A DNA stretch of 64,000 bases from Clostridia bacterium (GTDB taxonomy: Bacteria > Bacillota > Clostridia > Oscillospirales > Acutalibacteraceae): assembly GCA_017550895.1 (NCBI GenBank), contig JAFZNN010000236.1, positions 1,232-65,231 of the forward strand, given 5' to 3'. Every line of letters starts with the position of its first letter. Within the stretch, counting starts at the first letter, position 1. Positions 2,312 to 57,889 of the stretch are shown in pieces. Made by a program: the position numbers and the translations under genes. The notes under the pieces are model-generated. The model saw only the letters and a list, made by a program, of their open reading frames with translations. It made no database searches and was not told the origin of the DNA.

Positions 2312-2349
2312 TGATAATCATTGACTAGATCAAGCAGATGTGCTATAGT
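2312..2349 (+). promoter_or_regulatory. extended -10 promoter overlapped by a Fur-like box
   Basis: TTGACT(2321-2326)-17-TATAGT(2344-2349) with TG at 2341-2342; TGATAAT-C-ATTGACT at 2312-2326. Confidence 0.7.
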
Positions 2350-2355
2350 AATACT

Positions 2356-2422
2356 GGAACTGGGAGAGTTAGTAGAGCTTAGCTTGAAACCTTTGGGCGA
2401 GAAGCCACCCGGTTCTTTTTTT
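2356..2422 (+). ncRNA. candidate small regulatory RNA (family not recognised)
   Basis: Own promoter; no ATG-started ORF; closing stem GAACTGGG(2357-2364)/CCCGGTTC(2408-2415) followed by a T-run; no downstream gene on the same strand. Confidence 0.55.
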
Positions 2423-2495: not shown

Positions 2496-3116
2496 TTATC
2501 TGGAAATCCGCCGTTTGCCCAGATCGAGCAGGCTGCCCACGGCGATCGCGCCGATGACCGTGATCACGGTCTCAATCAGCATATAAGCGCCGTTATACGT
2601 CAGCGAATAAAGGATCACGGCCTTGATCGCGCTGCTCGGCGCATATCCGCTCCAGACCGTGACGCCGCTGATGAAATGGCAGGTAAAGCGCAGCAGGCAG
2701 ACGATCAGGCTGCCGATCGCCAGCGCCGGCACCTGCCGGGCGGCGAAGGTGTCTCTGTTTTCGAACGCCTTTTTCAGCATACCGCCCATGCCCAGCACGC
2801 CGTATGCGATCAGATAATCAAACAGCGCGACCATCAGCATCGCGCCAACGCCGGTCACATAAGAGAAATTCTTCAGCCCCATGATCAGCTCGAAAATCGC
2901 GAGCACCAGCGCCGCGGGGATCCCTGCCTTCAGGCCGTGGCGATAGCTGATGATGATGATCGGCACCTGGCCGAAAATCGTAAAGCCGCCGCCGTAGGCC
3001 CACGGCCAGGGGATCATCTCCGACACCGCGAACAGCGCGATCGACAGCGCGATCATGACTGCGCTTTCGGCGAGCACCTGCGTGGTGCTGACGGCGATTC
3101 CTGTTTTGTTTTTCAT
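2496..3116 (-). CDS. thiT: ECF-type thiamine transporter S component
   Basis: LAESAVMIAL..WAYGGGFTIFGQVP..RHGLKAG membrane protein directly downstream of a TPP riboswitch. Confidence 0.88.
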   Translation of the reverse strand: MKNKTGIAVSTTQVLAESAVMIALSIALFAVSEMIPWPWAYGGGFTIFGQVPIIIISYRHGLKAGIPAALVLAIFELIMGLKNFSYVTGVGAMLMVALFDYLIAYGVLGMGGMLKKAFENRDTFAARQVPALAIGSLIVCLLRFTCHFISGVTVWSGYAPSSAIKAVILYSLTYNGAYMLIETVITVIGAIAVGSLLDLGKRRISR

Positions 3117-3156: not shown

Positions 3157-3206
3157 TAAAAAATGCGCCCGACCGTGCAGATTTCCTGACCGTCGGGCGT
3201 TTTTTG
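3157..3206 (-). terminator. expression-platform terminator of the TPP riboswitch
   Basis: Minus strand CGCCCGACGGT...ACGGTCGGGCG followed by CATTTTTT. Confidence 0.75.
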
Positions 3207-3212
3207 CCGCTT

Positions 3213-3290
3213 GTTTCCTACGCCCGCATTACCGGGATCAGGTTCCGGGGTATTATCTCAGCCGAACGGATTCCGTTCAGCACCCCCTGT
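3213..3290 (-). ncRNA. TPP (THI-box) riboswitch
   Basis: Minus strand GGGGTGC...CTGAGA..ATACCC.GGAACCTGATCCCGGTAATGCGGGCGTAGGAA matches the TPP aptamer consensus. Confidence 0.93.
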
Positions 3291-3305
3291 TCAGTTTTTC
3301 GCTTC

Positions 3306-4739
3306 TCAGTCTTCCGCCGTCGCCGATCGGTTTGCCTTCCCCTCCGGCGTATCGCGGTAAAACTGCGTTTTCGGATTCGGATGCTTTGTGGTGTTCCACA
3401 GCTCGTCCGCCACCGGCTGCCAGGCCTTCGCGAAGGCGTCGCAGCGCGCGCAGAGCGTTTCCGCGCTCTCCGGCTCGATCAGATCCGTGGATTTCGCGCC
3501 GGTCTGCGCAATGATCGCCCGCAGGATCTCCGGATTCTCCAGCATCGGGCAGGGCCGCAGATGGTTGTCGTTGAACGGCTGGTTGTGATAATAGGCCTGG
3601 AACAGCGGATTCTTCAGCCCCTCCAGCAGCGTATGCGTGCGGATATTCGCGTCGGAATAATGCACGAACACGCAGGGCTCCATATCGCCCGAAGAGTTGA
3701 TGTGGAAATAATTCCGCCCGGCCGCGATGCAGCCGCCGACATATTCGCCGTCATTCTGGAAATCCATCACAAAGAGCGGCTGCCCGGTCTTGCCGTCGCG
3801 CACCTTGCGCAGCCATTTATACATGAACACCCGCTGCTCGGGCGTCGGGATCAGTTCTGGCACCGCCCCGCCGCCGACCGGCATATAGTTGAAGTAAAAC
3901 GCGAACCGCGCGCCCTTCTCCACAAGCAGACGCAGGAACGCGTCGCCTGTGACGTCGGGGATGTTCCTGCTCGTGTAGCAGACGGAAACGCCGTAGAAGA
4001 TGCCGTTGCGCTGCAGCAGCTCCATCGCCTTGATCGCGCGGCTGTAAGCGCCCGCGCCGCGGCGGTCGTCCGTGCTCTCCTGCGTGCCCTCGATGCTGAT
4101 CGCCAGCGTCAGGTTGCCCACCGCCTTCATGCGGGAGCAGAAGCTCTGATCGATCAGCGTGGCGTTGGTGTAGGCCAGGAAGGCGCAGTCCGGATGCTCG
4201 GCGCAAAGGGTCAGAATATCGTCCTTGCGCACAAGCGGCTCGCCGCCGGTCATCATATAGACATGCGTGCCCAGCGCCGTGCCCTGATCGACGATGCTGC
4301 GCATCTCATCGAGCGAAAGATTCGACTGGTGGCCGTATTCCGCCGACCAGCAGCCCTTGCAATGCATATTGCACGCGCTCGTGGGATCCATCAGCAGCAG
4401 GAACGGGATATTGCAGTGATATTTTTCGCGATTGGCGCGCACGGCCTTCGTGCCGTTGACGCCGGCGCCCAGGCCGACGGCCAGAAAAAGTTTTTTGATA
4501 TAGGCCGGGTCGCTCTCACGCACGATCCGCTCCGCATAATCGCGCCAGACGCTTTCCGGATCCTGCATGGCGCTGCGGAAGGCGTCGAAGTTCTTCGCGG
4601 GGAAGGTGCTGCCGCTGAGCTTCTGCGCCAGATTGATCAGCTGCACCAGGCGCGCGGCCGGCGCTTTGCGGATATAGGCATACAGCGCATCGAGCGTCAC
4701 GGACGCCGCTGCGCGCTGCAGACGTTCTTTTGTGGTCAC
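3306..4739 (-). CDS. radical SAM protein with SPASM/twitch-type C-terminus
   Basis: CNMHCKGC (CxxxCxxC), TGGEP, GCIAAG..HINSSGDMEPC; GTG start at 4739 after GGAGGTG. Confidence 0.88.
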   Translation of the reverse strand: MTTKERLQRAAASVTLDALYAYIRKAPAARLVQLINLAQKLSGSTFPAKNFDAFRSAMQDPESVWRDYAERIVRESDPAYIKKLFLAVGLGAGVNGTKAVRANREKYHCNIPFLLLMDPTSACNMHCKGCWSAEYGHQSNLSLDEMRSIVDQGTALGTHVYMMTGGEPLVRKDDILTLCAEHPDCAFLAYTNATLIDQSFCSRMKAVGNLTLAISIEGTQESTDDRRGAGAYSRAIKAMELLQRNGIFYGVSVCYTSRNIPDVTGDAFLRLLVEKGARFAFYFNYMPVGGGAVPELIPTPEQRVFMYKWLRKVRDGKTGQPLFVMDFQNDGEYVGGCIAAGRNYFHINSSGDMEPCVFVHYSDANIRTHTLLEGLKNPLFQAYYHNQPFNDNHLRPCPMLENPEILRAIIAQTGAKSTDLIEPESAETLCARCDAFAKAWQPVADELWNTTKHPNPKTQFYRDTPEGKANRSATAED

Positions 4740-4926
4740 GGCAATCACCTCCCGGATCGAGATATACGGATAGAGTATAGCACAATCTGCCGCCCTTGTC
4801 CACATATTTTTAAAAAAACAGGAGATATTTCTTGCTTTCCTCCTGAAATCAGCGTATAGTAAAGGAGGAAAACAAGCAGGGCGCGCCGCACTTCGCGCAA
4901 CGCCGCCCGAGGAATGAGGGAAAACT

Positions 4927-6630
4927 GTGAAGGAAAAATTCATGCGCGGCTCCCACGTGATCGGGCTGGTCGTGCGCATCATTATCGCCGCGGGCATCAT
5001 CGGACTGATTGTCTGGAAGTTCGACACGCTGCGCAATATCGATATTCCCGCGCTTGTGGCCGCCAAGGAAAACGTCTGGATCGCCATTCTGAGCATCTGG
5101 GGCGTTTATCTGCTCAAGGCCGTCACCTTCGTCGTGCCCGCTTCCGTGGTCTATATCGCCGTCGGCATGGCGTTCCGCCCGGTCATCGCGATCCTGGTCA
5201 ACAGCGCCGGCATCCTGCTGGAGGTCTGCGCGACTTATCTGCTCGGCATCCTGCTCGGCGGCCCGTATGTCACCCACAAGCTCGAGCAGGTGCGCTGGGG
5301 CGAAAAAATCCTTGCGCTGCAGAAGCGCGGCAAGCTCTCCGCCATCTTCCTGCTGCGGCTGATCCCGGTGTTCCCGATCGACATCACCGGCCTGCTGCTC
5401 GGCGCGGTGCGCATGCGCTTCCTGCCCTATCTCGGCCTTTCCCTTGCCGGCATCCTGCCGCGCGTGATCCTGTTCACGCTGCTCGGCGACCGGATTTATG
5501 ATTTGATCCCGCGGCAGCTGCTCACCCTGATCGCCGCCGTGCTCGTGGCGCTGGCGCTGGTCGTCTGGGTCGTGCGCTACGCGCTCAAATCCAAAAAGAA
5601 GGAGCGGAATTTCGGCAAATCCGCCTACACGCCGCTGTGTGAAAGCGATCGCAGCGTCATTTATGACACCGCGCTCGGCCAGGAGGCGGACGGCGCCGCT
5701 GCGCTCGCGCTGCTGGGCGTCCTGACGGAGCAATACGGCAACCGCCTGCTCTGCATCGGCAACAGCACCTCCGATCCCTATGCGAACGGCGCAATCCGCG
5801 CAATTGCCGAATACGCCCGGCTCGGCGCGCCGCAGCTCGCGTGGTACACCGGCGAGAGCCTGCTTGAGGACGGCTCCGTCTACAATCAGAAACTGACGAA
5901 AAAATACTGCAAATACGAAAACAGCGCCGTCGGCGCGGAAGACGCGGAGGACGTCTATCTCAAGCAGCTGCGCCGCGTGCAGGAGGACGGCGTCACCTTC
6001 ATTGTGACCGGGCCGCTGAATATTATCCGCCGCCTGCTGGAGGCGGATGAGGCGCTCTTCAACAAGAAGGTGCATTCCATCGTGCTGCAGGCCGGCGCCT
6101 ACCCGAAGGGGAAGGAATTCCACGCGCAATGCGACCCCGAATCGCTGGCCTATGTGCTTGCGCACTTCAAAAAGCGCATCGTCTGCGTGGGCTCGGAGGT
6201 CGGCAAAAACGTGCAGACCGGCTATCTGGATCCCCCGGCGGACGCCGAAACGAATCCGGTATTTGACGCCTACCGCCTCTCGACCGGCCGCAAGCAGCCG
6301 CCGTTCATGCAGCAGGCATGGGCGCTCACGGCGGTGCAGTATGCCTTTGAGGGCGACGGCGATTATTACCAGCTCTCCAAGCCCGTCAATATCCATGTGG
6401 AAGCGGACGGCGAAGTCCGCACGGAAAAGAATAAATACGCAAAGCAGCATTATCTGATCCGCACAGCGGATACGGCCGACCTGGCGGCGCATCTCAACGC
6501 GCTGCTGGCGCAATGCGGCAAGCCCGTCGCCGCGCCGCAAGCGGACGAAGCGCAGACGGAGGCGCCTGCCGCACCCGCGATTGCGGCGGAAGCGGCGCAG
6601 CCCGCGCAGGCGCCGTCGATCGACGGCTGA
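4927..6630 (+). CDS. DedA/TVP38 (VTT) membrane domain fused to a nucleoside-hydrolase-like domain
   Basis: N-half has FVVPAS..LLRLIPVFPIDIT (VTT); C-half has VIYDTALG, FIVTGPLNII, EFHAQCDP resembling IU-nucleoside hydrolases. Confidence 0.7.
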   Translation: MKEKFMRGSHVIGLVVRIIIAAGIIGLIVWKFDTLRNIDIPALVAAKENVWIAILSIWGVYLLKAVTFVVPASVVYIAVGMAFRPVIAILVNSAGILLEVCATYLLGILLGGPYVTHKLEQVRWGEKILALQKRGKLSAIFLLRLIPVFPIDITGLLLGAVRMRFLPYLGLSLAGILPRVILFTLLGDRIYDLIPRQLLTLIAAVLVALALVVWVVRYALKSKKKERNFGKSAYTPLCESDRSVIYDTALGQEADGAAALALLGVLTEQYGNRLLCIGNSTSDPYANGAIRAIAEYARLGAPQLAWYTGESLLEDGSVYNQKLTKKYCKYENSAVGAEDAEDVYLKQLRRVQEDGVTFIVTGPLNIIRRLLEADEALFNKKVHSIVLQAGAYPKGKEFHAQCDPESLAYVLAHFKKRIVCVGSEVGKNVQTGYLDPPADAETNPVFDAYRLSTGRKQPPFMQQAWALTAVQYAFEGDGDYYQLSKPVNIHVEADGEVRTEKNKYAKQHYLIRTADTADLAAHLNALLAQCGKPVAAPQADEAQTEAPAAPAIAAEAAQPAQAPSIDG

Positions 6631-8293: not shown

Positions 8294-8436
8294 TCCGAAA
8301 CCCTCCTGTCGTTATTTTTTTCATTATAGCATATCCGCCCGGAGAAAATCAAGTCCGGCCCGGCGGGTTTCCGCGCGCCATCAAAATCGCGCGGAAAGGC
8401 CGCCCGAAACCCGCTGAAAATTTTTAAAAAAAGGGC

Positions 8437-8465
8437 TTGACGCAAGCGGCGTTTTATGATATAGT
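8437..8465 (+). promoter_or_regulatory. tRNA operon promoter
   Basis: TTGACG-17-TATAGT with extended -10 TG. Confidence 0.8.
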
Positions 8466-8480
8466 TATTTAGCATTCCGT

Positions 8481-8556
8481 GCTGGTGTAGCTCAGTTGGT
8501 AGAGCAGCTGATTTGTAATCAGCAGGTCGGGGGTTCGAGTCCGTCCACCAGCTCCA
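8481..8556 (+). tRNA. tRNA-Thr(TGT)
   Basis: 76-nt cloverleaf; anticodon arm CTGAT-T-TGT-A-ATCAG; GTTCGAG T-loop; encoded CCA. Confidence 0.97.
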
Positions 8557-8587
8557 TGGCGGCTTTCGACCCCTTAAAATAGAATAT

Positions 8588-8672
8588 GGGAGAGTTCCCG
8601 AGCGGCCAAAGGGGGCAGACTGTAAATCTGTTGTCACTGACTTCGGTGGTTCGAATCCACCCTCTCCCACCA
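8588..8672 (+). tRNA. tRNA-Tyr(GTA)
   Basis: 85 nt; acceptor stem GGGAGAG/CTCTCCC+ACCA; CAGA-CT-GTA-AA-TCTG anticodon arm; long variable arm. Confidence 0.97.
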
Positions 8673-57114: not shown

Positions 57115-57486
57115 TCAGTCTTCCATCACATGTTCCATGCAGGCGCTGAAGATCGTTTTCACATGCTCGTCGGCCAGGGAGTAATAAACCACACGGCCGA
57201 CCTTGCGGTATTTGACCAGATTCACCTGCTTGAGGATCCGCAGCTGATGCGACACGGCGGATTTCGTCATGCCGAGCAGCACGGAAATATCGCACACGCA
57301 CATTTCATGCGCCTTGAGGGCGAAGAGGATGCGCACCCGCGTCGAATCGCCGAAAATGCGGAAGGCCTCCGCCATATCGATCATCAGATCTTCCTCCGGC
57401 AGCTGCCCGCGCACGGCGGCAACCACGTCCTCGTGAATGCTCTCGCAATCGCAGACCGCGATCTCCGGCATAAATGACTGCTGCAT
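57115..57486 (-). CDS. cadC: ArsR/SmtB-family repressor (CadC-like)
   Basis: CDCESIH, FGDSTRVRIL, EMCVCDI, SAVSHQLRIL, DEHV. Confidence 0.9.
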   Translation of the reverse strand: MQQSFMPEIAVCDCESIHEDVVAAVRGQLPEEDLMIDMAEAFRIFGDSTRVRILFALKAHEMCVCDISVLLGMTKSAVSHQLRILKQVNLVKYRKVGRVVYYSLADEHVKTIFSACMEHVMED

Positions 57487-57512: not shown

Positions 57513-57563
57513 GTTGAACAACTGTTCAACTGTTAGTGTACACACGCTCCCTGCTTTTGTCAA
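57513..57563 (-). promoter_or_regulatory. cad operon promoter and ArsR/SmtB-type operator
   Basis: Minus strand TTGACA-17-TACACT (57563-57535); 8-2-8 inverted repeat GTTGAACA-AC-TGTTCAAC (57513-57530). Confidence 0.85.
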
Positions 57564-57588
57564 GTGGTTTTCTCAAAATTGAATAGTT

Positions 57589-57654
57589 TTGCAGACATTT
57601 AATTAAAATTGTCTGCAACAAAGGATTGACATTCGGTTTTCTCTGCTTTATAAT
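57589..57654 (+). promoter_or_regulatory. consensus sigma70 promoter with upstream inverted repeat
   Basis: TTGACA(57626)-17-TATAAT(57649); TTGCAGACA-N12-TGTCTGCAA at 57589-57618. Confidence 0.85.
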
Positions 57655-57702
57655 ATTTGCCAGACGGGCTGAATCCCGCCAATCTAAACGGGAGGTAAGA
57701 TC

Positions 57703-57867
57703 ATGGAATTCGTCACCAACATCATTGCTCAGGTCAAGGATCTGGTTGCAGGTCTCGGCGAGTTCGATGCCGCTGGCGTTCTTGGTCAGGTGAAGGATAT
57801 GCTTGCAAACCTGAATCTGGACAGCATCAAGGCGTTCATCGAGAGCATCATCGCTATGTTTGCGTAA
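57703..57867 (+). CDS. 54-aa acidic amphipathic small protein (not in the ORF track)
   Basis: GGAGGT RBS; MEFVTNIIAQVKDLVAGLGEFDAAGVLGQVKDMLANLNLDSIKAFIESIIAMFA*; own promoter and terminator. Confidence 0.85.
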   Translation: MEFVTNIIAQVKDLVAGLGEFDAAGVLGQVKDMLANLNLDSIKAFIESIIAMFA

Positions 57868-57889
57868 TCTTGATTTTCGCATCCCACAG

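Follow-up and report, generated by a model that had tools for sequence, protein, structure and literature searches.

A putative orphan small transcription unit in lineage-specific DNA between a metal ABC transporter operon and thiT of a gut Clostridia bacterium

Comparison of syntenic loci shows that a 270-nt AT-richer segment has replaced the short spacer between an ABC-3 permease gene and thiT in one lineage only, that of the 64,000-nt stretch of Clostridia bacterium DNA analyzed here (hereafter the window). The segment carries a promoter, a stem that joins the two ends of a short non-coding stretch, and a T-run (2312-2422), which an initial annotation based on the same DNA had interpreted as a metal-sparing sRNA controlled by the neighboring regulator. 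We favor, at about even confidence, a different reading of the sequence: the element would be an orphan transcription unit that this strain or species gained recently, probably transcribed and perhaps without function, and not a conserved metal-responsive sRNA.

The element and the genes upstream of it are arranged as follows.

226-675, + strand: Fur-family regulator gene (Pfam FUR)
678-1382, + strand: ABC ATPase gene (Pfam ABC_tran)
1379-2218, + strand: ABC-3 permease gene (Pfam ABC-3)
2198-2467, not stranded: lineage-specific spacer segment of 270 nt, which includes the last 7 permease codons
2312-2326, + strand: Fur-like 7-1-7 match TGATAAT-C-ATTGACT, overlapping the -35 element and at chance level
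2321-2349, + strand: promoter of the sigma-A/sigma-70 type, TTGACT, 17 nt, TGnTATAGT (consensus scan)
2356-2422, + strand: putative RNA of ~60-67 nt in which a 9-bp closing stem surrounds two small hairpins and is followed by a U7 tail

The Pfam assignments bear out the Fur-family/metal ABC operon that had been placed upstream of the element (226-2218). The best NCBIfam similarities of the transporter were to zinc (AztA/AztB, ZnuBC) and Mn systems, all below cut-off, and the regulator fell below the NCBIfam cut-offs for Fur and PerR alike. The operon contained no gene for a substrate-binding protein, and the same was true of all syntenic relatives.

The promoter that the initial annotation described (TTGACT-17-TATAGT with an extended -10 TG) was present and strongly non-random, with the -35 at 2321-2326, the TGn motif (TGC) at 2341-2343, and the -10 at 2344-2349. 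It scored 10/12 with TGn and a 17-nt spacer, and a consensus scan of the first 3.4 kb returned only one other promoter-like site, that of the Fur-family gene. The whole window had 22 promoter-like sites scoring at least 10/12, seven of them with TG, compared to 4.1 +/- 1.8 and 0.33, respectively, after shuffling inside 100-nt blocks, a null that preserves local composition. About 95% of the TG-extended sites in the window exceed chance expectation, and most of the real promoter-like sites were directly upstream of a gene or tRNA on the same strand. When the insert (2305-2470) was shuffled, a site of at least 10/12 appeared in 3.2% of cases and one with TG in 0.08% (p ~0.0008).

The pairing of the ends and the T-run that had been reported for the element were also found. 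The closing stem is formed by GGAACTGGG (2356-2364), which begins seven bases past the -10, and CCCGGTTC(T) (2408-2416), with 2 G-U pairs. The T7 run occupies 2416-2422 and was matched in 3% of insert shuffles (p ~0.03). A stem of at least 8 bp abutting the T-run had p ~0.03 in shuffles of the preceding 66 nt, and the same stem with its 5' arm no more than 3 nt from the predicted start had p ~0.004 (0.4% of shuffles). The promoter, stem and T-run statistics are post hoc tests; with the tests combined, the promoter-stem-U-tract arrangement is not accidental, despite an unremarkable total folding energy. In agreement with the earlier description, no gene follows the candidate on the + strand before 4927; thiT and a radical-SAM gene come next, both on the minus strand. 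With its non-random promoter, 5'/3' stem, U-tract and lack of a downstream gene, the sequence fits the small stand-alone unit that had been proposed.

The putative RNA had a predicted folding energy of -19.8 kcal/mol, compared to -16.8 +/- 2.8 for shuffles (z -1.07), and the reverse strand folded no better. We rejected an extended palindrome at 2339-2439, as the fold over 2330-2445 gave z +0.13. The candidate terminator consists of an 8-9-bp stem that abuts U7 (p ~0.03) and closes a 43-nt branched interior; it was not called in a standard terminator scan because the stem encloses a 43-nt "loop".

The element was without a match in Rfam, both in a search of the whole window at the gathering threshold and in a search of 2200-2520 on both strands with Rfam 15 at E<=10, where the sole match was unrelated, weak, and located on the upstream terminator. 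This agrees with the earlier statement that the element belongs to no described family. A tRNA-like or pseudo-tRNA identity was rejected, since ARAGORN with its standard -ps setting was silent and the Rfam tRNA model had no match at E<=10. The very permissive -ps50 setting of ARAGORN gave one untyped "tRNA-???" call that we did not count as evidence, and the element contains two resemblances to tRNA, GTTAGTAGAGC, which is like a D-loop, and GGGAGAGTT, which matches the start of tRNA-Tyr. A covariance model of the candidate, built on a single sequence, found only the candidate itself in 600 kb of related loci.

Small ORFs of 21 and 42 aa on the + strand and 42 aa on the - strand were rejected by inspection for want of a ribosome-binding site. 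Their products would be neither hydrophobic nor strongly basic, and the + frame is interrupted by the T-run. They were also unlike the description of ZinP, the peptide encoded by the S. aureus sRNA ZinS. Judged by these features, the putative RNA is without coding potential.

Five related lineages were located via homologues of ThiT and ZnuB. Wherever a contig of theirs covers the region, the genes stand in the order TruB - Fur - ABC - ABC-3 > < ThiT - radical SAM; for the four of the five lineages that could be aligned, nucleotide identity to the window was 87-96%. Spacer lengths, defined as the distance between the stop codons of the permease gene and thiT, were as follows.

Window: spacer of 277 nt
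L083: 93-96% nucleotide identity to the window, spacer of 86 nt
L087: 86-87% nucleotide identity to the window, spacer of 36 nt
L089: ~86-88% nucleotide identity to the window, spacer of 61 nt
L095: ZnuB 92% amino acid identity to the window, spacer of 61 nt
L096/L090: ZnuB 95% and ThiT 86% amino acid identity to the window, unrelated spacer on two contigs that do not join

Nothing in the spacers of the five syntenic relatives could be aligned to 2305-2470. The segment 2198-2467 was the sole part of the first 7 kb that did not align with the closest relative. In blastn of the window against L083, the alignment broke exactly at 2197/2468, with 93-96% identity on either side, and the segment stands in place of a stretch of ~77 nt. 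All that the segment shares with L083 is a diverged form of a long hairpin at 2234-2302. The C-terminus of the permease differs between the two (...GKLTAGRAA in the window vs ...GKLRRTNA in L083) because the lineage-specific segment begins 21 nt before the stop codon (2198-2218 vs L083 4708-4730). Contigs L081 and L082, which carry the same permease, had intergenic sequence identical to that of the window, and their identity to it of 99.96-99.98% over 5.2 kb places all three in the same strain-level lineage, so they are uninformative on constraint.

Among more distant ThiT relatives synteny was lost, and 80 GTDB loci with ZnuB at 70-82% identity had no similar sequence in blastn-short and nhmmer searches. 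Absence from relatives, which the initial annotation had named as counting against its reading, is what we observed: the element was missing from the 5 syntenic relatives and from the 80 distant ZnuB loci. A conserved element behind ZnuB was rejected, since these 80 loci and the covariance model returned the element alone. The convergent permease/thiT spacer is hypervariable in this clade, with unrelated sequences in most lineages. The genes flanking it stay 86-96% identical. That the polarity of the change was insertion here and not losses elsewhere rests on parsimony across this hypervariable spacer. The adjacency of the element to the metal operon would then be due to a recent lineage-specific insertion into the spacer. 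In L085, a locus of the L083 type, the ABC ATPase/permease region (4726-6184) was 90.2% identical to the window vs 95.9% in sibling contigs, and its Fur-gene region was unaligned to the window; this divergence may reflect recombination or a chimeric assembly.

The GC content of 2312-2422 was 41% and that of 2305-2470 was 45%, compared to 59.4% for the window. No second copy was found in the window or in the related loci. Reads and contigs of four gut metagenomes were placed on 2000-2700 at >=80% likeness, and 2216-2480 was covered by the native contig only. In metagenome X4 a related organism with a depth of 41 skips 2197-2483 and no other copy was found. The segment had no terminal inverted repeats, and with a single copy and no such repeats a mobile or repeated element (MITE/REP-like) was rejected. 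A phage or plasmid origin was likewise rejected, as blastn was empty save for a 39-nt chance match in a Shinella record. No exact 20-24-mer was present in IMG/VR, where four word scans gave one 18-mer chance match (L094) with no similarity beyond the word, or in JGI metagenomes, where a 21-mer and a 24-mer taken from the RNA body had 0 matches; the homologue searches beyond the related loci used exact words or >=65-80% identity, which a diverged donor could escape. A search of public RNA runs for the element and for the first 10 kb of the window likewise returned none.

The proposed link to metals depends in part on the Fur-like box, which we compared with the sites at the promoter of the regulator gene.

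146-160, + strand: operator-like box TGAAAATCATTCTCA, immediately ahead of the -35, with 1 mismatch to the palindrome
167-195, + strand: promoter of the Fur-family gene, TTGACA-17-TAAAAT, bracketed by the two operator-like boxes
196-210, + strand: operator-like box TGATAACGCTTTTCA, immediately past the -10, with 1 mismatch to the palindrome

The two boxes, to which the initial annotation had compared that of the element, are real. Together with their flanks they do not vary among the window, L083, L087 and L089, although the DNA around them diverges, so they are very probably true operators of the regulator, and they likely constitute an autoregulatory double operator. Upstream of the Fur-family gene in L089 there is a third operator copy, ATGAGAAGGATTCTCA. 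The putative double operator resembles a Fur/PerR box more than the Bacillus Zur box.

The candidate box fared differently when scored against TGAWAAYNRTTWTCA, the palindrome defined by the two invariant operators of the regulator. Its reported 11/14 match to the Fur consensus stands as a count, but the box has 3 mismatches to TGAWAAYNRTTWTCA, which is chance level. The left half-site TGATAAT is perfect, the right half is no more than the -35 hexamer, and the box has none of the AAAn/AATT flanks that are conserved at both true operators. The window contained 34 sites with at most 3 mismatches to TGAWAAYNRTTWTCA, compared to 10.7 in shuffles, and 13 of the 34 fell in the 8.6 kb of AT-richer DNA (local GC <50%). 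A comparable box occurs at three other promoter-like sites at two loci, tRNA-Thr (8437) and a divergent pair (57563/57626). At the first of these, TGAAAATTTTTAAAA is a Fur-like box with 3 mismatches just upstream of the -35 of the tRNA promoter and served as a control for unrelated promoters. The chance of such a box is roughly 0.1-0.15 per promoter. We therefore treated the candidate box as a chance resemblance of AT-rich promoter DNA to an AT-rich operator, and the suggested control by the neighboring regulator loses its support from a box at chance level whose right half is the -35 and whose flanks are missing. Mimicry of Fur-type boxes by AT-rich promoter DNA is a lesson of this comparison. 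The tRNA locus itself comprises tRNA-Thr(TGT) and tRNA-Tyr(GTA) at 8415-8672 behind the promoter TTGACG-17-TGaTATAGT. The only other match to the palindrome with 1 mismatch, TGAAGATCGTTTTCA at 57147-57161, was inside an ORF (57115-57486, -) near its 3' end.

Predicted duplexes of the putative RNA with the 45 translation-initiation regions of the 64-kb window, dfx included, were no better than those of shuffled RNAs. Within these 64 kb of genome the best duplex had an energy of -42.3 kcal/mol, compared to a shuffled-RNA minimum of -44.1 +/- 3.5, and dfx had -34.7. The metal-sparing function that had been suggested, with dfx as a possible target, thus found no support in the target scan of the window.

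Downstream of the element, the convergent thiT gene and the signals around it are as follows.

2225-2495, - strand: predicted thiT 3' UTR, lengthened by the insert and complementary to the whole putative RNA
2234-2302, not stranded: long bidirectional terminator hairpin (inverted repeat I1, 22-nt arms, 86% complementary)
2496-3116, - strand: thiT, S component of an ECF thiamine transporter (Pfam Thia_YuaJ, E 3e-27; homologues named ThiT)
3197-3297, - strand: TPP riboswitch in the thiT leader (RF00059, 50.3 bits, E 2.6e-9)

The TPP riboswitch was the positive control for the Rfam search. It scored under the Rfam gathering score of 54.3, so that the default threshold misses it and an E-value search finds it, and about 10 model positions are absent in one of its stems. 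thiT is convergent with the metal ABC operon, and the hairpin at 2234-2302 is followed by a T-tract on the + strand for the operon and by TTTTTCTGTTTTTT on the - strand for thiT. The + strand T-tract is TGTTTTCATT in the window, weaker than CTTTTTTATT in L083. A sequence scan found no minus-strand terminator-like site between the thiT stop codon (2496) and the hairpin (2302-2234), so the thiT 3' UTR probably extends through the insert. The candidate RNA would for that reason be its perfect antisense partner. The fold of the minus-strand 3' UTR had z -3.2 and was dominated by the hairpin.

These features suggest the following model for the orphan unit. RNA polymerase with the housekeeping sigma factor would start at G2356 or G2357 and mostly stop at the U-tract, and the stem would lock the two ends of the resulting RNA of ~60-65 nt to each other. 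Probably the promoter is constitutive; a half box at chance level is its sole regulator-like site. Perfect complementarity of the RNA to the lengthened thiT 3' UTR is predicted, and an effect would most plausibly be exerted in cis on the thiT mRNA, through duplex-dependent processing or transcriptional interference. The hairpin and U-tract would also prevent antisense transcription from this promoter through thiT. In selective terms the unit is most likely young or neutral.

Several other explanations account for part of these observations. The segment could be relic DNA, an imported or rearranged fragment, for instance the promoter plus leader from a gene that was lost or is foreign, in which the signals survive, no discrete or stable RNA is made, and any transcript is unstable noise without effect. 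We consider this possible but doubtful. It is consistent with the absence of the element from every relative, with the hypervariable spacer (36, 61, 61, 86 and 277 nt, plus the unrelated spacer of L096/L090), and with a fold no better than shuffles, the lack of a canonical terminator call, and the lack of a target signal. However, a promoter of this quality is very unlikely to arise by chance in DNA of the insert's composition (0.08%), and the 5'/3' stem abutting T7 fits a unit with a clean start and stop. Another explanation takes the hairpin and T7 as a back-up terminator or insulator, which would mainly stop read-through from the zur-ABC operon where the operon's own T-tract has decayed to TGTTTTCATT, and would either keep convergent transcription out of thiT or yield a 3'-UTR-derived RNA co-regulated with the operon, with the promoter being incidental. 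The weaker + strand T-tract after 2234-2302 compared to CTTTTTTATT of L083 points in this direction, as does the position of T7 (2416-2422) 114 nt further on the same strand. Yet the highly non-random promoter and the 5' arm of the stem at the predicted start are left unexplained, and the relatives manage with a single bidirectional hairpin; we regard a back-up terminator as unlikely.

We give similarly little credence to the birth or acquisition of an sRNA gene that is expressed and already wired into a circuit. Under that scenario a promoter-RNA-terminator module of ~110 nt could have been gained within less than ~7% nucleotide divergence, between the metal-uptake operon and thiT, and could either be repressed via the half Fur-like box or act in cis on the thiamine-transporter mRNA. 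If true, a riboregulator of very recent origin would be tied to metal or thiamine uptake. Least probable of all, and in our view very improbable, is the reading with which the analysis began, a trans-acting metal-sparing sRNA repressed by the Fur-family (Zur-like) regulator via 2312-2326, in the manner of RyhB, FsrA or ZinS. Its position directly behind the regulator and metal ABC operon is suggestive, as are the perfect left half-site and the overlap of the box with the -35, a place from which a repressor would block the promoter, and lineage-restricted Zur-repressed sRNAs such as ZinS do exist (PMC13586535). Against this, the box is at chance level and the flanks of the true operators are absent, the adjacency is accidental given that syntenic relatives have the same operon without the element, no similarity to an Rfam sRNA was found, and pairing within the window, including dfx, was not above chance. 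We retain the orphan transcription unit as the preferred reading.

RyhB of Enterobacteria and FsrA of Bacillus are Fur-repressed iron-sparing sRNAs that show cross-genus conservation and possess C-rich or defined seed regions. What the candidate shares with them is only the proposed logic, in which a short RNA ending in a terminator has a repressor box across its promoter; unlike RyhB and FsrA, it has no Rfam match, significant box, conservation or identifiable seed. The candidate resembles the generic class of cis-antisense RNAs to 3' UTRs of convergent genes and orphan strain-specific sRNAs in that its promoter faces a convergent gene, in its full complementarity to the predicted thiT 3' UTR, and in being strain-specific and located in AT-richer, recently gained DNA. 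This class is defined by observed transcripts, whereas the candidate is known from sequence and its overlap with thiT depends on the predicted thiT termination site. At best, the candidate would act in the manner of a generic orphan or cis-antisense sRNA.

The closest described parallel is ZinS (RsaX20) of S. aureus, a Zur-repressed sRNA confined to S. aureus and close species and thought to stem from horizontal transfer and neofunctionalisation (PMC13586535). Its 3' end overlaps the transcript of a convergent gene at a bidirectional terminator (PMC13586535). ZinS is 274 nt long and its Zur box is validated; it codes for ZinP, a basic peptide of 34 aa, and adh is among its demonstrated targets (PMC13586535). 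Like ZinS, the candidate would be a stand-alone sRNA gene of a Firmicute, and it is confined to a narrow lineage. In contrast to ZinS, its RNA would be ~65 nt, it has no credible ORF, it carries a box at chance level, and we found no target for it; the two have no sequence similarity.

Should the RNA be made, this uncultured gut Clostridia bacterium would supply a further lineage-specific orphan sRNA, useful mainly as a dated case of complete small transcription units arising in the fast-evolving spacers of convergent genes. It would raise no new question in metal homeostasis, because the link to metals consists of an adjacency created by insertion and a box at chance level.

Two other regions of the window had promoters of note. 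At 57563-58032, a promoter of perfect consensus (TTGACA-17-TATAAT) at 57626 (+) precedes the next + strand ORF (58032) by ~370 nt and is divergent from the promoter-like site at 57563 (-); this long leader had no Rfam match at E<=0.1. The radical-SAM gene beyond thiT (3306-5096, -) was a mechanical ORF of 596 aa, compared to 473-499 aa called in relatives, and a promoter-like site at 4802 (-) fits a shorter start for this gene.
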